64,000 nt of DNA from Camelus ferus (lineage: Eukaryota). Location: contig NC_045696.1 in NCBI RefSeq assembly GCF_009834535.1, forward strand, positions 49,726,001 to 49,790,000, written 5' to 3'. The position numbers and the translations under genes were made by a program. The notes below the pieces were generated by a model that saw nothing but the letters and a program-made list of their open reading frames with translations, searched no databases and was not told where the DNA came from. This document shows positions 3,001 through 61,912 of the stretch, piece by piece (within the stretch, counting starts at the first letter, position 1; each line of letters opens with the position of its first letter).

Positions 3001-4134
3001 TGTTTGGCCAACAAAACTGCATTAGCAGTTATACTTTTTGATTAAAAAAAGTGTGAGGAAGAGGGGGGAACCAAGTGTTGCCACCCTGTAGGGTTGTAGT
3101 TTGACCCTCTGTAGTTTTATTGGCCCAAATGAAGAGGGAACAGAGTTTGGTAATGTTTCATTTGGGTGCTTAAGTAGCATTTGCAACTGCAAACAGATTG
3201 AAATATATTAATCCACTTTATCATCTAAATTGACATTGGTGTCTCATATTGCTGGGTCAAAAATTGAACTTTTAAGTATCCATTTCAACATGAGGTACCA
3301 TTAGAGTAAATTCTGTACCATTTGAGTAAATCTTGAAAATCCAGAGTTGGGCTCAGTGCTCAGCTTTTGACTTTTGTTTGGCAACATCTGCTCTGGCTTC
3401 CTTCCTGGATTGCTGTCTCTGCACCTGGTGGGAAAACCTCTTCTGTCTAACTTCGTTCTGTTTCCCATTTTGTACGCATTAGCTTATAACTGAAATCTTC
3501 CACACTACTTGACTTTAATTCTTTTCTTGTCTATTCTGACATCTTACTTGTGGATTTCCCTTTGTATCCTTGTCTGAAATGTCCCAAATGGTTGGAAGAT
3601 TGCTGTCCAATTTAAATTGCACTTAAGATAGGCATAGGCTTGGACCCCAGAGAGCATGTTTACATGGTTATTAAACATAGAAAATAACTGTTCCCTTTTC
3701 CTACACAATTTTTGTTATTAATTCTGTCAGAGACAGGGTGCTTGCCGAATAGACCACAGTCTGACCTCAGATGGGCTTGGGATTTTGTTTATGTCCTTAA
3801 CACCACAAAATTTTAGGTATGAAGATAGCTTTATGCTATCATTGGATAATACCCATCAGATTCTTTTTCCTTCAGTGGGACTTAACATCATTGTCATTTC
3901 TTTCTATCATAACTTCCCCAGGCTACCACTCTCACCGGATTAGCCCCGCTCTGTGCTCCTTTACCAATCTGTCAATAAATCCTGTTACAGCAGGTGTCAC
4001 ACTGTACAGCATTGATTCACATGTGTGTTTTCCCTTTGGACTGTAAGCTGTGTAAAGGCAGGAAATGATGTCTTTGACCACAAACTTTCCAGGGCCTAGC
4101 TCAAAGCCTGGTTTATAGTAGGCACTTAGTGAAG

Positions 4135-5850: not shown

Positions 5851-8011
5851 AACCACGTGTATAGGTGGGCGTGTGTATGAGAAGGCTGCACTCACTGCAT
5901 ATATGGTTTTTTAAATTTACTAAACATTATATGAATGTACTTTTTAATGCTATAAAATATACCTCAAAATAAGATTTCAAAGGGTTTACTATTCACTCAT
6001 ATAATGTACTGTAGCTTAACTTTCTCCCTATTGTTGGACAATTAGGGTGTTCCCCCCCATAATAAATAACAGAGTAATGTTCTCAGGATCCACGAATATC
6101 CTTGTTTCCTCAATTCAAAAATATTTAACTTGAGGGAATTGGTCAAGATTTGCTGGAATTTCATCACGGCAAACCAACGTGTGATAAAGTTAGCTGGGAA
6201 TAGAAGGAACCAAGACTGAAGGTCATCTTGGTTTCAGTCCTCCAAGAGGGCATGGTGAGATAAATCTCAAGTCAGGCTGGTGCTGCTCTCAAGGTCAGAC
6301 TTGGTAGTGCTCAGAGGGACACTTGTCTCGGTGGCAGAGATGGTCCTATCTCTAAATAATGAAAGACCTCGCAAGAGCCAGAGGGCAGGGCCAGATCCCA
6401 GCAGGGAGGCAATTCTAAAGGAGAATCTCAGTTTTTTTGAGGTTCACTTCAAAAGATAACCACGCTTTTATCCATCAGGGCAGGGCTTTGGGTGGATGGG
6501 GAGGACCCCGAGGCAGAGCTTGTCGGGGAAAGCTGCAGCCTTGTGGGGTGTGAGGACTCGGCCCATCTCTAGAATTAAGCAGCCAAACTGTTTTTTGGTC
6601 CCATTCTGTGGATAAGAAGCAGTTCTTTCTTAGGCTGTTTTCATTTGCCCAGGAACCTGTGAGACTGAACAAGCAAGGTGAAGGTCCTCTCTCTGTGTCT
6701 GGGAGGGAGTGGGGAAGGTGTGGCTGACATTGAAGACTCCATGTTCATTGAGTGTCTCACCTGTGGGACGGTGGGAGTCAGGAGGCGTTGGAGATAAGAG
6801 GAGAAGCACTAGACGTAACCCTCCTCTTTAAACGTGTGTCTTAGTTACAGAAACAAGCTCATTCTGATGCTGATTACTAACCATAAGTGCTACAGTTTAT
6901 ATATGGTCCAGAGATGTGGTAACTAGTGTCTCAGGTGCCTAAGGAGATGGAGGATGTTCTTAGCGGTACCTGAGTTCAATGAGAATGTGTAAATTGTGTT
7001 TGCACTTTGATGATAATCTAAAGAAGATATTTTTATCAGTTTGAAATATAAGCATTCACATTTGCAGTGATAATTTATAATTAAAGGACATTTTCATAGA
7101 CTAAAACTTTAGTTCTTAAGTTAAATTGTTCAAACTAGGGTCTAAAGCATATTCTTATGGGTGCGTCCATTTAAAAAATTTTTTTTCATCATGGATTATA
7201 TAATCCTAATCTCAACCTCAAAGAATGGGTGGGTTCAGATGGGTGCAAAAGAGGGAGAAAGTTGTTTCTGTGAGAGGACTTAAGTCAAGGATGAGCATGG
7301 TGCCTTTGGGGTGCCTGGGAACTTGAAGGGGACATCAGTTTCAGGTTTTTAAATATTCCACCCTAACCCTGATCTGGCAGTAACCTGGGGAACACTCTTT
7401 CCTCTACTAATACCTGCCTTTCTCTAATGGGTGCAGGAGCTTTAAGTCTTTGTTGAGAAGGGAAGGTACTCTCATAGCCCTTTCTAAAGAACCATCTTCT
7501 AACCCTCATGTTATTGATTAGTGACTAACATGAAATTTTTTTATCTGCTAGAATGTGAATTTAGTTTCCTCAGGACTTTACTTCTAAGCAGTTAATGACT
7601 CTAACAGAGACATCTAAGGAAGGGCCACTGCATCATCCCTTTGGGTATTTGCTAGGTTCTCAGGAAGCAGGGGGTCCTCCAAGGACTAGAACAGAGGGAC
7701 ATGGTCTGTTTTAGGTACCAGACTCATCTTGCACCGGTAACTGGTTGGGGATTTGTTCCTCTCAAATATCATTAATGTCCCCTTGAGTTATTTTTCTTTT
7801 GTATAAAAAAAATCCCAGATTAGTGATCTTTATTTGTCTTCATTTTGCAGTACAGCTTTACTAGGTTTCTTACTAAAACAGCATTTGTGTTTTTTAATCA
7901 CATCAGGTCAGACTGCAAGGCTATTTGTCCTGATGAACAAATAGATCTTCATTGTTAAGTGAAGTTCTCTCTCTCTCTCTTTTCTTTTTCTTTACAGATT
8001 CCAACAAGATT

Positions 8012-9346
8012 ATGGCAGAGCAGAGCCACATGCAAAAGCAGCTGGATTTACAGAATGGTAGCTTAGAGGCAGACTTTGCAGCGAATTTCCTAGAGAACGA
8101 TTCGCAAAACATGATGGAGAGCCTGAGCCCAAAGAAATATTCTTCCAGTCTGAGATTTAAAGCCAATGGAGACTATTCTGGTTCCTATTTAACCCTCTCA
8201 CAACCTGTGCCCACTAAAAGAAGTCCTTCTCCTTTGGGAACCAGTGTCAGAAGTAGCCCCTCTGTGGCCAAAATCCAGGGAGCCAAGCAGTTCTCTTGCG
8301 ATGGAACTGACAAAAGTATTTCTATGAAACCTCCCACTCCTTTACTTAGCACTTCGCCCTCTCTCAGTGGATATCCACTTGGGAGAGCGGACTTCGATCA
8401 TTTTACTGGCCGGGACCCTGAAAGGTCCTTGAGGCTCACAGAGAAGCCTCCCTATTCCAAATATAGCTCAAGGAATAAATCCCACGACAATGTCTACTTT
8501 CTGGGAGGGCTGGAAGGCCGAAAAACGTCTGGCTCGCTCCTGACCATGTGGAACGGAAGTTCCCTGAGTGATGCTGGCTCCTCGCCCATCAGCAGGTCAG
8601 GGGCGGCAAGCATGCCTTCGAGCCCAAAGCAAGCCAGGAAAATAAGCATCCAGGACAACCTGACACTTCAGCCCAAGTTGACCAGACACAAGGAGCCGGC
8701 TTCTGAAAACATCAGTTTAAGAACCAGGAAGTATTCGAGCAGCAGCCTGAGTCACATGGGTGCCTACAGCCGATCTCTCCCCAGGTTGCACAGGGCCACA
8801 GAGAACCAACTGACGCCTCTCAGTTTGCCTCCAAGAAGCTCTCTGGGCAACTCCAAACGAACAAAACTGGGGGAAAAGGATCTACCTCATAGCATCATAG
8901 ACAATGACAATTACCTGAATTTTTCTTCTTTGAGCTCAGGAGCTTTACCCTATAAAACCCCCGCACCTGAGGGCAGTCCTTATGTGAGTTCCACCCTCAG
9001 CATCCCTGCCAGTCCTCGAGTGGCTCGGAAGATGCTTCTGGCCTCCACCTCCTCCTGTACCTCTGATGACCTTGACAGGGCTTCCTACTCAGGGACCAGC
9101 CCGGGTCAATCATTTCCTCCCGGAGAGCTGGACAGAGTGTGTGCGGCCAGGAGGAATTTCTCGTGTGGATCTGTTGAGTTTGATGATGCAGACCTGGACA
9201 GCCTCAGACAGGCCTCAGGAACCCCCCAGCCAGTCCTTCGGGAACGGAAAAGCAGCATTAGCTCCATTTCGGGACGAGACGACCTGATGGATTATCACCG
9301 GCGGCAGAGGGAGGAGAGACTCAGGGAGCAGGAGATGGAGCGATTG
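8012..9346 (+). CDS. PHLDB2: PHLDB2 exon 2 (first coding exon, 445 codons; exon starts at 7998)
   Basis: Polypyrimidine tract and tttacag| acceptor (AG 7996-7997), ATG at 8012 (attATGg), Ser/Pro-rich protein MAEQSHMQKQLDLQNGSLE...RQREERLREQEMERL recognisable as the LL5-beta N-terminus; donor TTG|gtaatc at 9347, phase 0. Confidence 0.96.
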
Positions 9347-12204
9347 GTAATCTTCTTCATCTCACTTAACCTCACTGTTTCATTGAACAGCTTCTTGGAG
9401 ACAAACTCCAAGGATATATATGGGCGTGTAGAATTTCCATATGCACTAGCCAGGTGTCCCTTCCCAGATTTCCTCCTGCTAACCTTCCTCTTCCCAGATC
9501 ACTATTATTGGTCACGTGGATATTTTGAAGGCCTGCATGTACCTCATGTTACATTAATCGCTATAAAGATGTCTCACAAGTACAAATTCTTGATAAATCT
9601 AACTAAGGCAGTTGTGAATTTTACTGAATTTCTTTGAAAGTCTTATGAACTTTTCTTTTAAAACTATGAGAAAACACTGATTTGTATTATTTATATCATC
9701 AAATTGGCATGTATACGATAAAATACAATCAGTAAAATCACAACTCACTAGAAATTAGGCAGTAAATTTTTCTGTGTAGCAAGTTATTTGGAAAGTTGAA
9801 AGGTTGCCCCAATGGTGCATAAGCTTTCTTCTGCACAGCACATACACGCACCATATTCCTTTCAGACATGTCTTAATAGGTACAGTGACTCCAAACCACA
9901 CAGATGCAAAAAAAAAAATTATTGAGTTGCCTGTGGATTTATGCTTACTGTAAAAAAATTTTTGAAAATAGTAAGAAAAGAGGAAACAGAAGAGTCCTAC
10001 TAACAAATGAGAACAAACTGCTGCATTTTTCTGTGCCCTTTGCTTTTAAGCATATGTTTTTTAGGAAGAATACCTGTTAGATTATTTTGACTCATTAGTG
10101 ATTAATGATTTCCTTAATGAGGGAAGTGGCAGAATGGTAAACCTGATTTACAGAAGTATAGGGGTGTCAAAGGTATTTTAGAAGGTATGCTGGAATAAGA
10201 TTTCTGAATCACATGCAAAACTAGTTAATGCCCTACAGGACAATAAAATTGTAGCCTTTGGCTTATAATGAACGGAAGTTTTTTCCATCTATACAAGACA
10301 GTATTTGCTTGAATTTTTAGAAAAAGATTTATTTGCATCACTCACATTTTGATAGGTTAATGTCCATCCTTACAAAGTTTCCAAATATCCTAATCGATAA
10401 TAGTGAATGAAAACAGATGTGTGTACCGCTAGAGGATTGGGTGGGTATGTTAGATGGTGTTCCAGTATGAGAATTCCTTTGTTATCATAAATAGTCTCCA
10501 AAGATTTTCATGGTCACAAAAAGGCATTATATTTGGGCTTGATTCATTGGCGTAGGTTAGAAATAGTTTTAATTAGTATATAAAAGCCTTCTTTTAGATG
10601 GATAGCAGATCTAGTGCTATACTGTGCTGAACAGTTACCATTAATAAAGCCAGAGAACTGACTTCTAGATGATGATTGATTAAGGAATCTAGGAGGGCAT
10701 TTGAGTGACTTTCATCACTCCAGAGGTCTTCCTTAAATGCTTTTATTTACTTTTCAAAGGATAGGAAACCATACTTTAAGTTCATATCCATTGGGTTTCA
10801 TCTTTAACACTTAAAAGTATTGGTGAATTTTTCTTTCCTCTAGTTTTCTCAAATCTTCTAAGGTTCCTGGTAATCCAGGAAGTGACCTTCCTTACTGCCT
10901 GTAAGGTTGGTGCCCTGTTAGCTACAAACAGATCCTAGTTCAACCTCTTGAGAGAGCTTTGTGGGTATTAGCTCCAGATATGAGGTTATAGCTCTTTTTC
11001 CTTAATAAGGGGCTTGTCATATTTGATGAAATGGGGCTTATTTTTAAATAAGGCGCTCTAGCTTTGGCTTCTGTTGTGTAGTCTGTTTGTCTGATTACAT
11101 CCCAGTAAAAGGGAGGACAGATTCTTACTGAGCCCATGCAAATAATGTTCTTGCCATGAAAAAGTAAAGTGACTCAGAAAAAATATTTCTTCCTGAATTG
11201 TGAGGGACCAAGGAGAACAAGCTACCATTAGAAGAATGTTTCATTTAGTTTTGCGAAATTGGAGTCAACTAAGTTTAGGGTTAGAGATAGATCAAGATGA
11301 ACGCTGAAAGGGTATTTCCCCACCAGAAAATACAACATTAAAAATGATGCCAATAATTTTCCAAAACACATATTCACATAGAGAAATTAGATTTCTGGTA
11401 TCAGTTCAAACATCTCTATGTAATTAATTGTTCTTCTAATCTTGGGTCATTAATTTGATTTCATGAAGTCATCTATTTCTGGACTGAAAGAAGTCCTGAA
11501 AATTTGATTTAGCTTAAGCGTAGGACTGTCTCATACTTGTCTATGTAATGTCAGCTCTTCTTTCAGCCTCTCTCCATGAGTCTGTTCTCCAAAATAGCGA
11601 GTGAAGAGGGCCTGGTAAAGTTCTATCCACAGGCTCTGAGACTGTCTTTCTGTGTTAAAGACATTCTGCTCTGTAACGTAAGCAGGGTCTTTAGGCAAGC
11701 ATGAGAGGAAAGCTGAGACTACTTGGTGAGGATAAGAGTAAGTGGCTCTGCTTAATCTGTGGTTAATTGAACCAACAGTATAAGCCAGAAGGAGAATTAA
11801 ACAGAGTCTGCTGTGAGTATTGCTACCCCAGCTTTCTTATCCTTTCCATTTCCATGAAATATCTTTTTCCATCCTCTCACTTTCAGTCTGTGTGTGACTT
11901 CAGCTCTGAAGTGAGTCTCTTGTAGGCAGCATAATGCTGAGTGAAGCGTTTAGTCCACTGACATTTAAAGTGACTCTGGATAGGTATGTACTCATTGCCA
12001 TTTTGTTACTTGTTTTCTGGTTGTTTTGTAGTTATTTTCTGTTCTTTTCTTCTTTTAGTTTCTTCCTTTGTAGTTTGATAATTTTCTTTAATGGTATGGT
12101 TGTGTTCCTTTCTTTTCAGTTTTGTGTATCTACTGTAGGTTTTTGATTTGTGGTTACCATGGGGTTCATATATGTTTGACCTATAGCTTTATCTACTTGT
12201 CTTA

Positions 12205-26732: not shown

Positions 26733-27511
26733 ATATGGAGACATTGAATCCTTAGAGTTAACAGAAGAGAGAGGTCACATTTATCAGTTGTAATAGGTCA
26801 TCTTAAATAGAGAAAAAAAACTCTTTTCAACTAAAGTATTTAAATCATTAAAAGTTGACCCTTCGTTTTAGGTAATAAATGACCCAACACATTTAATTAT
26901 AAAAGAGGGATTTTGACAAAAACTTTACCTATGCTTAAGTATCAGCACCTGACTTTCTGCATAATTTATTTCTGTGTTATGTTTGTGGTCCCACGGCCTG
27001 GGCTGGCTGCTGTTGGTTACGAGAGGACTGGATGGGTAGAGGAGATGGATGAGGTCCCCGACTGAGGGTTGTGAACTCCAGTGGGACAACACCAGACGCT
27101 TTCCTCTGAAAAAGAAAGCAAGCTCTGAGGTCAAAAAGACAGCTTTTTTATTTTTGACCACTCAGGGAAAGAACTGTGCACCCTGTTCTTCAGGTATATT
27201 TGTTAAGCTCTTGTGTCCCCTTCACAGCTTTCTTTGATGCATGTGGTATATGGAGATGGAGGAAAGGGAAAATAGAGAGGGAGAAAAAAATTAAAATGTG
27301 TTTTAAATAATGTGATTCAAAGTGACCTACATTCTACACCCTGAAAACCAGTGTTTTGGGCCATTTAGGCTCTCTGCTGGTGCCTTTTCAGGACAGTGTG
27401 CAGTGGATTGCTGGTTTGGAAAGATGGGTGGGAACTGGAGATCTTAAAGAGGGTGGCCGCCTAACTCAGCAGATTGTCAGGTGAAGCGTCAAAGAAAACT
27501 GAATTTTAGGA

Positions 27512-27626
27512 AGAGAGCCGTACGTCTCAGGTTGCCAGTCCCAGTTTGTGCTTGCTGTCCCAGCATAATTATTAATAGTGCCCCCATTTGATTCTCAAAA
27601 GTGTCCTGGGTGGAATGGCCACCCTC
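27512..27626 (+). mobile_element. MER94 (hAT-Blackjack MITE)
   Basis: gtcccagcataattattaatagtgcccccatttgattctcaaaagtgtcc...tggccaccct follows the recalled MER94 consensus. Confidence 0.75.
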
Positions 27627-28510
27627 GTTTTAGGTCATGCAGAGTGGAGAATATTGGTGTGATGAATGGGCAGGACAAAGTGGGCTAGAGGGAGGATTAT
27701 GAGGGCAAATTCTGTTCAGGCTTTTCCTTAAAAGGCTTCTCATGCTTTCTGAAGTGCCTTGCAGACTTGTGACGCAGGTCTCATCAGCAGCTTATTTTTC
27801 TTCAGTGCAGCTTTTACGGGGCCAGTGTGTCTCGGCGCAGCCTGGATTTCTGTTAGACCCGTGGGCAGCGGTGCTGCGTGCGTGTGTGCTCCAAGCCTGA
27901 ACAGATTGGCTGGGAGTGGGGTGATAAGAATAGAGAGGAGCACATACCAGTAGACCAAACTTCCTGTGCACCAGCCTTTGAATACTGTTTCACTGTCTGA
28001 AATAGCATCCATCTTAAGTCTGGGATCGTTTATTCCCTCTGGAATTAAGCAATAGCACTGGCAGCAGAAGAAACTATTTTGGGAAGGAGATGTGGGAGGA
28101 ATTTTGCTATGTATTATAGAAATACTTGTCATGCTTTTGAAGACCACACTTGTTCATTAGTGCCCTGGTGAATAGAAACTGCTAACTTTCCAATAATCCC
28201 AAATGTCATGAACGTCAAGGCTGATGCATGAAGATTAGCAAAGACTGAGTTTAGATGCTTCAACTTAAATCACCTTACATGGCAGAAAGAGAACTTTTCT
28301 TTGGAGATTAGCCTCTAATGCAGATACTCTTGAGAAGGGGTAAATTGCAACATCTTGTTCCTGTCCCTTCCTCATATGTGCCCTTGCACTTGTTTCTGCA
28401 TATGCCCATGCAGACCTTTCTAGATTGTTGGAGAAGTTTAAATAACGCGATGAATGCTGTGTCTCCCCTACCCCCAGCTCCCTCCCCACAACGTTGAGGT
28501 GGGTAGGGCT

Positions 28511-28545
28511 TGGCAGCTGGTGGCAGCTGCGGAGATAAATAAGCA
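28511..28545 (+). promoter_or_regulatory. Candidate internal promoter: paired CAGCTG E-boxes plus TATA-like ATAAATAA
   Basis: tggCAGCTGg tggCAGCTGc (E-boxes at 28514-28519 and 28524-28529, 10 bp apart), then ATAAATAA at 28535-28542, about 33 bp before the ATG at 28575. Confidence 0.5.
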
Positions 28546-28574
28546 CCAGGGCTCCTGGATGGACCTGTGCAGAC

Positions 28575-28676
28575 ATGCCTGGGATGAGGTGGAACAGCTC
28601 TGAGTGCCTTCCCTGCGGCGAGGCCATGAGGACGGAGCTGCAGCTGGAGTCCAGAAGTTCAGGCAGTGAATGGGAG
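28575..28676 (+). CDS. PHLDB2: Candidate alternative first coding exon of a short PHLDB2 isoform (MPGMRWNSSECLPCGEAMRTELQLESRSSGSEWE)
   Basis: Three in-frame ATGs (28575, 28584, 28626) end at a phase-0 donor GAG|gtgggg (28677) that is frame-compatible with exon 3; TATA-like box and E-boxes immediately upstream. Confidence 0.6.
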
Positions 28677-30073
28677 GTGGGGGCTTCGAAGAACCAGCTT
28701 AATAGTCCGTTTGATCGAGCTATTGTATTTTTTGGTTGGGGAGAGAACTTTAGAGGACGGATAAAAGTCATTTTATTCTGTTTTGTCATTATAACGAATG
28801 TATTTAATGGAAACCAGGGAATTGTGGTAGTCTGTTTCTATTTGACATTTCTATTTGATCCCCTTCAACTAATAAAGAGTGAACTGCCTTCAGAATTTTC
28901 TCTTTACAAATTTGCTGCGATTAGACATGAAAAACAGCAGCCCAGTCTGCTTAGCATTTTTCTGTTTTGTAACTGATAACTAGTTTGGAAAAATGTTTTT
29001 CTGTGGAAGGCTTTTGAATTCTCTTTTCAGTGTGGTAGATGTAATCACAACAGTTTTTTTTTTTTTTTTGGCTATTTTTTTTTCTTTTCATTTTGGCATT
29101 GGAATTAATGTGAGAGGCAAAAGTGCTGATGATGAGTATTTGTAAATTATATCCCCTTGTTCACAAATGTATAGTTAATGTACTTAAAGTCCAAAATCAT
29201 AAATAACTACCTGTTTTGCATGGGACCTTGGTGAAATGTCAGTTAGTGGTACCATTATCTACATCAATGGCATATGTATTGATTTTTTAAAAAATAAATA
29301 AACTATCATTCTATTTTCCAGCTAAATGAATAAAAAATTTAATGATCTCACAATCTGAAATATGTTGATGTCCTTTATCTGGACATGATGTTAAATGTTC
29401 TTTTTTTTCTTACAACACTTTAAAAATTAATTTAATTATTCATATGAGAAATTGGTGGAAAAGACCTTTACATGGTGATAAGACAAAAAAAATTGAAAAA
29501 TGTGAAGTATTTCAAGAAAAAAGTTGAAGATCCCATATGCCTTTTAAACTAAAACTTTTTTTTAAATTAAAACATCTTTAAAGTAGTGTTTTCCTTTTGT
29601 GTGTCTAACAGTAGAATATCTCTTTAGGAAACAGACAATTAATTGTAAGCACAAACATTAAGTCTACAGTGATGAAAGAGCTAGGTATTGTTGAAGCTAG
29701 GTAATAAAGGGAAGGAAGAGGGCGAAGATTTTTAAAGGGAAATCTTAAAAAACTTTTGAAATATTTGGAGCATTGATAAATCAAAAAAAGGCTCAGTGGG
29801 TGCTTGTATGTGCTAGGACCAGCACTGGGGTATACAGATATAAGGGGCAACCAGAATTGAGTTTGGAAGGAAAGTCAGGCATTGTAAACCCAGGCTTCAT
29901 CTGCAGCTATAAATGGGTATATCAAAGATGATGGAAAATCATCACCAGCTGAGTATCTGTGTGGTTGTCTGTGTGGGTTGAAATCACCCGTAATCCCAGC
30001 CTCTCTTTAGTCTTCTTGTTTGGAGCTGTCTCCTTCTCAAACACTCACTGACCTTCCCTCCTCTGTGTTCTAG

Positions 30074-30457
30074 GAGAGACAGCGTCTGGAGACCATCCTC
30101 AGTCTCTGTGCTGAATACACAAAGCCTGACAGTCGCTTGTCCACTGGCACCACCGTGGCAGATGTGCAGAAGATCAATAAGGAGCTGGAGAAGCTGCAGC
30201 TCTCTGACGAGGAGTCTGTGTTTGAAGAAGCCCTGGTGAGCCCTGACACCAGATACAGGTGCCACCAGAAAAGCTCTCTCCACGATGCGGACCTGGCTGT
30301 CTTTGGGAGCCTCAGTCAGAGCAGTGCCAGCTTCCTTTCCCCCAGGAGCACCAGGAATGATGAACTGCTCAGGGACCTCACCAGGACTCCCCCACCACCC
30401 TCCTCTGCCTTTCTGAAAACTTCCAGCGAGTCCACGTACCTAAGTATCCTACCAAAG
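30074..30457 (+). CDS. PHLDB2: PHLDB2 exon 3 (128 codons, ERQRLETILSLCAEY...YLSILPK)
   Basis: gtgttctag| acceptor, AAG|gtaaag donor; continues the EMERL-ERQRLETILSLCAEY motif typical of PHLDB proteins; phase 0/0. Confidence 0.96.
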
Positions 30458-30779
30458 GTAAAGCTGGCAGGGCCCAGAGACTGGGACTTAGGACCTAGGG
30501 CCGTGCATCTGCGCTGGCCTAGACATCACAGGTTTATCACGCTTGTTTTCCAAAATGTTTTCAGTGAACCTTCAATCTAAGAGGTAATTAGCTAAACATG
30601 GCACAGCAAATGAGAATGTTTACTATAAAGTAACAAATTTGCATTCCAGAAAATGTAGCAGTGCAGAAAAGTAGAAAGAGAAAAAATTTTCTTCTCCCTG
30701 CCCCCTTCCAGTTGTACACCTGCGAGAGAAGCACAAAGTGTCTGACATGCCTTCCCAATATTTCTGTGCACAGCCATAT

Positions 30780-33100
30780 ATTACAGACATAGACACACAT
30801 ATACATATGCACAGTGTTCTGCATGACTTTTTCCCTCCCTGAATGTCTTGAGCATCTTTGCATATCACTATACACAGCTCTGCCTCATTCTTGTTAATGG
30901 TTGACTAGTATTCTGTTGTTTGGAAATACTATTTAAACTGTTTCTAGCTTTTTACTAATAAAATCTATAGGCAGCAAACATTCTAGAATATATATATTAT
31001 ATTAGTACAATTGTGCAAGTGTGTCTGTAGGATCACTTACTAAAAGTGAAATTGGTAGGTCAGAGAGTTTGCATGCTATTTGTTTTAATCAAATCTCCAA
31101 ATTATACTCTCAAAAAATTGTATTTCCTGGTGACACTTTGAGTAACAGTTTATACGTGCAGCTTGTTCTTCATACACTTGGCAAGGTTGTATATTATCAA
31201 AAATTTTCAATTTGCTAAGTTAATGGTTTTTTAATTTGCTTGCTTTTATTTGTGCATAAAGTTGGACATCTTTTCATATTTTTAGTTGTTAATTTTTATT
31301 TTGACACACATATTCTTCACTCATTTTGGGGGACACCTTTTTTTACTTATTATTTATTTAACTTTTTAAAGTATTGTTGATTTACAATATTAAATTAGTT
31401 TTAGATGTGCAATATGATGATTTAACATTTTTATAGATTATTCTACATTTAAAGTTATAAAATATTGGCTATATTCCCTGTGTTGTACAATATATCCTTA
31501 TATCTTACTTATTTTATACATAGTTTTTGTAACTCTATTAATCCCCTACCCATATCTTGCCCCTCTTCCATGCCTCCCCCTACTGGTAACCACTAGTTTG
31601 TCCTCTATATCTGTCAGTCGGTTTCTGTTTTGTTATGTTTGTTTTTTTTTTTTTAAGATTCCACATATAAGTACCAACATATAGTATTTGTCTTTTTCTA
31701 GCTGACTTATTTCACTAAGCATATCCTCCAGGTTCATCTATGTTGTTGCAAATGGGAAATTTTTGTTCTTTTGTATGGCTAAGTAATATTCCATTATGTA
31801 TATATACCACATCCTCTTTATTATTTCATCTGTTGATGGATACTTAGGTTGCTTCCATATCTTGGCTATTGTAAATAATGCTGCTATGAACACTGAGGTG
31901 CATATATTTTCCCAAATTACTTTTCTTTTGCTTTGGGTCTATTCCCAGGAGTGGAATTACTGGATCATATGGTAATTCTCTTTTCGTTTTTTTGAGGACC
32001 ACTATGCTGTTTTCCACAGTGGTTGCACCAGCTTAAATTCCCACAAACAGTGTAGTAGGGTCCCTTTTTCTTCATATCCTTGCCAACATTTGTTATTTGT
32101 GGTCTTTTTGGAGATAGCTATTCTGACAGGTGTGAGGTGATATCTCAGTGTGGTTTTGATTTATGTTTCTCTGTTGATCATTAATGTTGAACATCTTTTC
32201 ATGTGCCTGTTGGCCATCTGTATGTCTTTGGGAAAATGTCTGTTCAGATCTTCTGCACGTGTTTTAATCGAGTTGGTTGTTTTTCTGATATTGGGTTGTA
32301 TGAGCTGTTTATATAGTTTGAATATTAACTCCTTATTGGTCATGTCATTTACAAATATTTTCTTCCATTCAATAGGTTGTCTTTTCATTTTGTCGGTGGT
32401 TTCCTTTGATATGCAAAAGCTTTTAAGTTTAATTAGTTCCCATTTTTTGGGAGGGACCTAATTAAATTTTGGTGGAAACTTTAGAGTTTTGTATATGTGG
32501 TCATGTCATCTGCAAACAGTGACAGTTTTTCTTCTCTCCTTCCAATTTGGATGCCTTTTATTTCTTGTCTGCTTGCCATGGCTACAGCTTCCAATACTAT
32601 GTTAAATAGGAGTAGTGAGAGTGGGCATATTTGTCTTCTTCCTGATTCTAGAGGAAAAGCTTTCAGCTTTTTACCATCGAGTATGTTGTTAGCTGTGGGT
32701 ATGTTGAGATATAACTTTATAGGAGTTCTGTTGTCTTTGTCTTGTAGGTGTACTCTTGTTGTCTTGTAGATGTATTCTTGATGTGTTTGTGGGGGAGGTG
32801 AGCTCAGCATCCTCCTGTTCCACCATCTTGATATCCCTTGTCTTCCTCTTCACCCATTTAAAAAAAAATGTTTTGTCTTGTTTTTACTCAGTAGTTGGAA
32901 CTATTGATGGTAAGGAAATCAAGGAAATTAGTCCTTTATCATGAGTGGTCTTCCTTTTGACTTTATTATTGATTTTTTGGGGGTGTCTAGGAGTTTAACA
33001 TTTATATGTAGTCATAATCATTACTTAGTTTTCTGGTTGTTGTTTGCTGATCTAAACATGTCTTCCAAATTTGACAATCTCTTAAAAAAGTTCAAGGAAA
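30780..33100 (-). mobile_element. Ancient L1ME-like fragment, interrupted by a younger L1
   Basis: ctgcctcattcttgttaatggttg...gtgtctgtaggatcacttactaaaagtgaaattggtaggtcagag before the insertion; aaggaaattagtcctttatc after it. Confidence 0.55.
31338..32840 (-). mobile_element. Internally deleted L1 (3'UTR, two ORF2 segments, 5' tip)
   Basis: ORF track ORF2 pieces [12 protein letters not shown] and [26 protein letters not shown]...LSLFADDM; 5' tip gatatcaagatggtggaacaggaggatgctgagctcacctcccc; candidate TSD tcttcac(t/c)cattt at 31314-31326 and 32847-32859. Confidence 0.88.
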
Positions 33101-55708: not shown

Positions 55709-55864
55709 GATGCCGATCTGTTGGATGTCGAAAGCAAACACTTTGAAGACCTGGAATTCCAGCAGCTTGAGCGCGAGAGCCGTCTAGATGAGGAAAAGGA
55801 GAACCTGACCCAACAGCTCCTGCGTGAAGTGGCTGAGTATCAGCGGAACATTGTTACTAGAAAG
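55709..55864 (+). CDS. PHLDB2: PHLDB2 exon 7 (52 codons, DADLLDVESKHFEDLEFQQLE...IVTRK)
   Basis: ttttctccaaag| acceptor, AAG|gtactt donor; FEDLEFQQLE is a conserved PHLDB-family motif. Confidence 0.96.
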
Positions 55865-56820
55865 GTACTTTTGCCAGGTGTCTTTCAGCGACAAAGTCAA
55901 ACTACACCCCTCACTACGTGACAATACGATTGTTTATATAGCGATAGTGTGTGTCCTTCTGTCTGTTATCTGTTTTACCTGAATACCTTTGTGTGTTCAA
56001 TCACATGCCACATTTGGCAGCTTACGGAGCCTGCCATCTGTGAGTGGTGCTGCGAACTAGGTAAACTGAGACGTGTTACGGTCACTGTTACTTAATGCTG
56101 TAGATGCACTTATGAACTAATACCTAATTTTTTCTTTTATGTGAAAACCAAGGTAGAGAAAATTGGAAATCTAGATATATGTTTTAAATTACTTGCCTTT
56201 GCAGTCATGGTAACTAAACTTGGAATAATTCTATGCGCAGTCTTTTTGGAATGTCTCTGTTTCTGTTGCTCAGTAGTTCTCAAAGCCTGCCGATAGTTGG
56301 TTACTACTAGAAATAGCCTCGTGTAATGCCGTGCAGATTACTGCTTCCACCCAACCCTTAGCACCTAGATATCCAGCCCAAAATTCAGCTCTTGTTCCAG
56401 AATTTAGAATCACACCCCAGTGCTCTGTACTCAACTGATAAAACTAGGGAAACAAAGATGGAGAAAGTGACTTAAACTTTCGGTTTAAATAAGAAATTCC
56501 ATTGTTTTTTTTCCCATGAGGCATCTCCCAAGATGATGTCAAAAATTCATTTATATTCTAAAACTAGACTTCCTGTTGACTTCTGGGTTCTTGAAATAGA
56601 TTTTAAATCACTTAACCTTAGGTAGAGAAAAGCCTTGAACTTGGCAGTTCAAAGAAACTGCCTCACTGTCTCTGGGTAGTAATCACTGCCTAGCCACCAT
56701 CAGGGAAATGTGATCACTGCTCTTCTAGTTGTAAACACTTTTCCTCCCTTTTCTAGGGCAGTCTGACAAAACTTTTCATGTCTAATGTACATCTTTCTAT
56801 GGCCATCTTTTTTCCTCCAG

Positions 56821-56931
56821 GAAAAAATTTCTGCATTGAAAAAGCAAGCCAATCACATTGTCCAGCAGGCTCAGAGAGAACAAGATCATTTTGTGAAAGA
56901 AAAGAATAATCTGCTAATGATGCTGCAAAGG
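56821..56931 (+). CDS. PHLDB2: PHLDB2 exon 8 (37 codons, EKISALKKQANH...MMLQR)
   Basis: ttttcctccag| acceptor, AGG|gtaagt consensus donor. Confidence 0.95.
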
Positions 56932-61726: not shown

Positions 61727-61912
61727 CAAAGATCACCTGTCTGTTCTGGATTTATGTTTCCTTCCACCCTTTCTCCTCATCCTATCACTCAACCTCCATC
61801 AGCCTCTTGGCCTGAAGTCGTGGCTACATCTGTCGATCCTTCCCCTTTAAATGACACACCTCCTCCTCTACCAGCTAAGAAACACAGGAGGCAGCAGCAG
61901 CAGGAGCAGCAG
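61727..61912 (+). CDS. PHLDB2: Candidate alternative PHLDB2 exon '10b' (62 codons, QRSPVCSGFMFP...DTPPPLPAKKHRRQQQQEQQ)
   Basis: Pyrimidine tract ttttctttctcctataaag|, strong CAG|gtaatt donor at 61913, 186 nt, phase 0/0, no stop codon. Confidence 0.7.

Follow-up and report, generated by a model that had tools for sequence, protein, structure and literature searches.

An alternative first exon in PHLDB2 intron 2 of Camelus ferus predicts a short LL5-beta isoform that probably cannot bind ELKS

Full-length LL5-beta is a member of the ELKS-LL5-beta-CLASP complex that stabilises cortical microtubules, parts of which are represented by the structures 8WHM and 8WHK. According to the accessible part of PMC10337942, LL5-beta binds filamin through residues 323-356, ERC1/ELKS within residues 381-510 (a fragment spanning 305-450 does not bind) and CLASP through residues 563-916. 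The portion of PMC11297316 available to us describes the ELKS-binding motif as a helical hairpin, with ELKS binding disrupted by the substitution E439K. The closest described system for the exon considered here is a human isoform of 744 aa (UniProt E9PGF6; cDNA FLJ43567), which carries an orthologous first exon, the identical in-frame joint and a 31-residue start. RefSeq short isoforms from whales, Weddell seal, Geoffroy's cat, macaques and elephant, together with the GenBank record EPY73239.1, share the same joint between this exon and exon 3. Both exon and isoform are therefore already publicly annotated, and what we infer anew is that the isoform splits the ELKS-binding motif. We found no paper on the function or tissue range of the short isoform in the open-access literature, nor in that literature any printed form of the prediction that a natural isoform separates the CLASP and PIP3 binding of LL5-beta from its ELKS and filamin binding. 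Such a separation would be relevant to cortical microtubule capture, directed secretion and cell migration.

The window, by which we mean the whole 64-kb stretch of DNA analysed, is on the strength of protein matches Camelus PHLDB2 (LL5-beta), because both exon 3 and exon 2 match Camelus PHLDB2 proteins. In a protein search exon 3 matched the PHLDB2 of Camelus and Vicugna at 100% identity, and exon 2 agrees at 445/445 residues with four Camelus RefSeq isoforms and at 440/445 with two alpaca isoforms. Between these two exons lies a sequence with homology to the human first exon and an open frame running from ATG to a phase-0 GT (Table 1). The exon is real and shows the structural features of the annotated short PHLDB2 isoform of the E9PGF6 type, already known as annotation. 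A preliminary description of this DNA had proposed that an internal first exon is spliced onto exon 3 without a break in frame, and proteins with this joint were indeed found in 36 placental species. It had also suspected a human annotation, which exists (E9PGF6, 744 aa, and FLJ43567, BAC86200.1). Its portrayal of the exon as hidden has to be abandoned, as does any view of it as unannotated, since public records carry it in human (E9PGF6) and in many other placental mammals.

Table 1. Positions of the main PHLDB2 features within the 64-kb window.
Feature	Position	Strand	Remarks
Canonical PHLDB2 exon 2	7998..9346	+	ATG 8012, residues 1-445, coding 8012-9346; missing from short isoform
Pair of CAGCTG E-boxes (10-bp spacing) within an exact 9-bp direct repeat	28511..28529	.	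5/100 shuffles
AT-rich element, TATA-like, overlap of GATA and FOX consensus	28533..28542	+	Putative role; each consensus expected ~0.5 per 415 bp per strand
Out-of-frame upstream ATG, 14 codons	28559..28603	+	Overlaps first two in-frame ATGs, stops before third
Alternative first exon, coding part	28575..28676	+	Residues 1-31 of the camel GenBank record = 28584-28676 exactly
Intron, 1397 bp, phase 0	28677..30073	+	Weak GT donor; exon 3 acceptor common to both forms
Exon 3 (residues 446-573)	30074..30457	+	Common to both forms; second half of ELKS-binding hairpin
Two exons, 55709-55864 and 56821-56931	55709..56931	+	CLASP2-binding coiled coil (718-770), retained in short isoform; PDB 8WHK

Three protein searches and two cluster look-ups yielded 215 proteins, counting the window's own peptide. 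The start of exon 3 is contained in 203 of them, preceded by exon 2 in 155, by the alternative exon in 46 and by other sequence in two; the searches were aimed at the alternative exon, so the ratio of 46 to 155 is not one of abundance. The 46 exon-bearing proteins represent 36 named species (primates, carnivores, whales, bats, bank vole, elephant and camel), from which we built a set of one row per species, leaving out extra isoforms and one unresolved Cercopithecinae row. The human cDNA FLJ43567, from clone PUAEN2007785 (BAC86200.1 / Q6ZUM0), encodes the joint of the alternative exon with exon 3 and shows directly that the splice occurs in human. For the camel itself, the GenBank Camelus ferus record EPY73239.1 ('hypothetical protein') maps exactly to 28584-28676 and then to 30074 onward. 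RefSeq short models occur in ten species, range from 743 to 938 aa and differ in their internal exons; four whale models of 888-895 aa include all the optional downstream exons that were scored. Given how RefSeq models are built, these varied sizes and internal exons suggest support beyond the copying of one human model. Many of the UniRef rows of 738-745 aa were probably projected from the human model and so do not count as independent. Two further proteins, Leopardus isoform X40 and one from Galemys, place other short N-termini of unrelated sequence (11 and 21 aa) on exon 3, which may represent additional internal first exons or artefacts of the models.

The three in-frame ATGs that had been reported for the exon lie at 28575, 28584 and 28626, and the phase-0 donor placed 1.4 kb before exon 3 is the GT at 28677, 1397 bp upstream of exon 3 (30074). 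At this donor the bases at +3 to +6 are further from consensus than in the five downstream donors compared. Exon 2 encodes 445 residues and is in phase 0 at its 9346 end, and the reading frame is therefore preserved when the first exons are swapped. The replacement in frame of the 445-aa exon 2 segment, as originally described, thus stands, both exon ends being in phase 0. The new N-terminus had been given as 17-34 aa. Initiation at 28584 gives 31 residues and at 28626 a core of 17, and both of these starts are conserved; the 34-aa version, from the ATG at 28575, is used in 0/36 species rows and is rejected. Compared with the human 744-aa isoform, with which it shares 25 of 31 residues, the camel sequence has this extra upstream in-frame ATG and a Trp in place of Arg at the second-last codon.

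Across the 36 rows a Met stands 17 residues before exon 3 in 30 and 31 residues before it in 22. The models from whales, seal, cat, dog, vole and Prolemur are without the Met at -31 and keep the third Met, and in four whales, Weddell seal and Geoffroy's cat the third ATG is the start (17 aa). New World monkeys and elephant, on the other hand, keep the second Met and are without the third. Horseshoe bat and elephant have a Met at neither of the two exact positions but carry indels that keep the frame, and their start corresponds to the second ATG. The preliminary description does not mention the out-of-frame ATG at 28559. When matched by eye, the ATG with which the dog and Prolemur models appear to start corresponds to this one, and in these models it is in frame. 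If present in the camel mRNA, ATG 28559 would favour initiation at the third in-frame ATG. The pattern of Met residues fits selection for translation in this frame, read from rows that are all protein models, among which lineages without the frame cannot appear (an ascertainment bias).

The consequences for the protein follow from the position of the joint. Chain B of PDB 8WHM, deposited with PMC11297316, is taken here, on the accessible part of that report, as the ELKS-binding motif of LL5-beta. It aligns without gaps to camel residues 412-490, and the exon 2/3 joint at 445/446 falls inside this motif. Camel residue 439 is Glu, where the designation E439 assumes that human and camel numbering agree; an offset of up to 4 residues would still leave the critical Glu within exon 2. 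The filamin segment (323-356) and the first half of the ELKS-binding motif, E439 included, are both encoded by exon 2; given the joint at 445/446 and Glu439, neither is therefore present in the short isoform. The claim that N-terminal binding sites are lost can accordingly be made specific: they are the filamin site and residues 412-445, with E439, of the ELKS motif. As 412-445 is encoded in exon 2, no intact ELKS motif is left in the short isoform, which keeps the CLASP-binding coiled coil, to which chain B of 8WHK aligns at camel residues 718-770, and the PH domain. Set against full-length LL5-beta, the two forms have the CLASP coiled coil and PH domain in common, whereas 323-356 and 412-445 with E439 are replaced in the short form by a short segment, mostly modelled at low confidence. 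An AlphaFold model of the camel record from an 18-row alignment has a mean pLDDT of 60.7, with residues 1-27 below 50, and places helices at 26-47 and 59-71. The new N-terminal end is not modelled as a substitute for the lost helix. Judged by its sequence, the short scaffold probably cannot bind ELKS, and reagents directed at exon 2 would miss it.

We favour, with moderate confidence, an explanation in which a conserved promoter in PHLDB2 intron 2 gives rise to a minor mRNA for a CLASP adaptor uncoupled from ELKS and filamin, and not restricted to muscle. The promoter would be conserved in placental mammals and presumably active in the camel as well, and the minor mRNA would join its short first exon to exon 3 in phase 0. 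With translation beginning at the second or third ATG, the product would be a protein of about 745-895 aa, which may accumulate at 87-103 kDa as against 141 kDa for the full-length form. This protein, lacking the filamin site and ELKS/ERC1 motif residues 412-445, would be expected not to bind ELKS, and it would retain the coiled coil that binds CLASP and the PH domain that binds PIP3. In the cell it would most likely serve as an adaptor able to recruit CLASP to PIP3 membrane away from ELKS patches, or as a competitor of full-length LL5-beta for CLASP. A bolder version holds that a cell-type-specific promoter has been kept in order to cut the ELKS hairpin at the exon 2/3 joint, and that its product captures microtubules outside ELKS condensates or dismantles the condensates by competition. 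We regard this version as possible, though doubtful; if true, the coupling of cortical microtubule capture to ELKS secretion sites and filamin would depend on which of the two promoters is in use, with endothelium, adult muscle and synaptic nuclei as candidate sites of the switch.

The level of use of the exon and the depth of its conservation bear on a different explanation, namely that the region is a conserved intronic enhancer with low spliced transcription and little or no stable protein, that the models across species largely echo one human cDNA, and that the peptide looks conserved through constraint on the DNA. Several observations are in keeping with it: the weak donor, the differing start codons among lineages, the overlapping out-of-frame ATG and the scarcity of the exon in sequence records. 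The alternative exon is carried by 0/38 other camelid isoforms in the protein search, and by none of 13 further named camelid isoforms among the 15 of 33 cluster members listed. Among the records found, EPY73239.1 is the only camel one with the exon, and no current camelid RefSeq model with it was seen. None of the ten PHLDB2 proteins from assembled sequencing runs contains it (0/10), and no mouse or rat record appeared among the 41 matches of one protein search. The short isoform is likely a minor form. Nor is coding constraint significant: camel and human agree at 16/17 residues in the core, 9/14 upstream of the core and 58/60 where exon 3 begins, and over four orders 12/17 columns of the core are invariant compared with 7/14 of the preceding codons (p = 0.29). 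However, the rows, from elephant to primates, preserve the frame into exon 3 even where they carry indels, albeit within the same ascertainment-biased set; every row (36/36) has at least one equivalent of an in-frame Met; and ten species have RefSeq models that differ in their internal exons. Overall, we think it unlikely that an enhancer accounts for the region in this way.

Sequencing runs were also searched for the exon region. The interval 28470-28700 was found, whole or in part, in 20 of the 24 listed runs. Five runs recorded as RNA, from three studies, contain 0.30-1.00 of 20 sampled words, a measure that cannot separate spliced RNA, pre-mRNA and DNA. Four of these five are labelled 'reproductive system metagenome', and they weigh neither for expression nor for a tissue. 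A metagenome scan with exon 3 confirmed one locus among at least 596 candidate stretches, 58% identical. It is a vertebrate PHLDB2 exon 3 at 3001-3384 on a 32-kb metagenome contig, presumably host DNA. The 3 kb upstream of that exon 3 hold one CAGCTG and gave no homologue of the alternative exon by tblastn or blastn; as this is one locus whose intron is possibly longer, it says little about the age of the exon.

The sequence upstream of the exon had been read as a myogenic promoter, and the corresponding explanation is that MyoD or myogenin drives a muscle or neuromuscular-junction isoform. The paired CAGCTG E-boxes one helical turn apart on which this was founded are present, at 28514 and 28524, 10 bp apart. 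The window contains 27 CAGCTG words, and these two form the sole pair within 30 bp. A CAGCTG pair with a gap of 2-8 bp arises in 5/100 dinucleotide shuffles of the window, so the pair is real and uncommon, at a frequency modestly above chance. The motif is nonetheless also bound by many non-muscle bHLH factors. The reported ATAAATAA is likewise present, at 28535, and is frequent, with nine + strand copies in the window; GATA (28533) and FOX (28535) consensus matches overlap it, and it could just as well be a site of either kind. The 415 bp of 28200-28615 hold one GATA, one FOX and two ETS matches, near the chance level of about 0.5, 0.5 and 0.7 per strand. A companion MEF2, CArG or TEAD site is a typical feature of a myogenic promoter, and 28200-28615 has no strict-consensus match for any of the three. 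The CpG observed/expected ratio is 0.79 (8 CpG) at 28601-28800 compared with 0-0.49 in the other 19 200-bp bins of 27001-31000.

LL5-beta does act at the postsynapse, as described in the accessible part of PMC2171857, which is in line with a muscle form. However, the human clone points elsewhere, as PUAEN2, the source of PUAEN2007785, is among the endothelial libraries listed in the portion of PMC2346479 available to us; this endothelial record is the only tissue-labelled one found for the isoform. Two myotube data sets give no sign of the isoform either. In the available text of PMC2171857, two monoclonals raised to LL5-beta residues 418-760, with epitopes unmapped, detect a single full-size band in C2 myotubes, and this antigen region is mostly retained in the short form. 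In PMC4482065, as far as it is accessible, 180 genes switch start site between myoblasts and myotubes during C2C12 differentiation and Phldb2 is absent from that table; in the data set as a whole just 635 genes have two or more start sites. The same source gives an RNA logFC of 0.14 for Phldb2 in C2C12 differentiation, and the gene occurs four times in its supplementary file 2, in tables S7, S8, S9 and S13. Among the papers listed in an open-access search, none links MyoD or myogenin with such an isoform. On these points, each of them weak and drawn from sequence motifs, one cDNA clone and C2 or C2C12 myotubes, a muscle role is unlikely; the myogenic promoter itself, with the E-box pair as its sole footing, we consider rather improbable. 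An endothelial reading rests in turn on one clone and on the GATA, FOX and ETS matches near chance level. As part of the favoured explanation as a whole, the short isoform is somewhat more probably a form not restricted to muscle, with endothelium as one source. A chance ORF followed by a GT is rejected, as the joint is conserved in 36 species rows and in the human cDNA.

Some other features of the gene deserve mention. In the intron at 9347-9637 the frame of exon 2 stays open for 96 further codons, and one protein record of 535 aa ends in this read-through; it is probably a gene-model artefact, or alternatively may be an intronic-polyadenylation form. The sequence at 61727-61912 is an optional exon with a proline-rich PPPLPAKK word, which we take to resemble a Crk-type SH3 ligand. 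Among the short isoforms scored, the five from whales and that of the vole include this exon, and the primate, carnivore and bat ones do not. Additionally, the PHLDB2 protein cluster has 306-aa ABHD10 proteins among its members, which hints at fused PHLDB2-ABHD10 gene models in some annotations.
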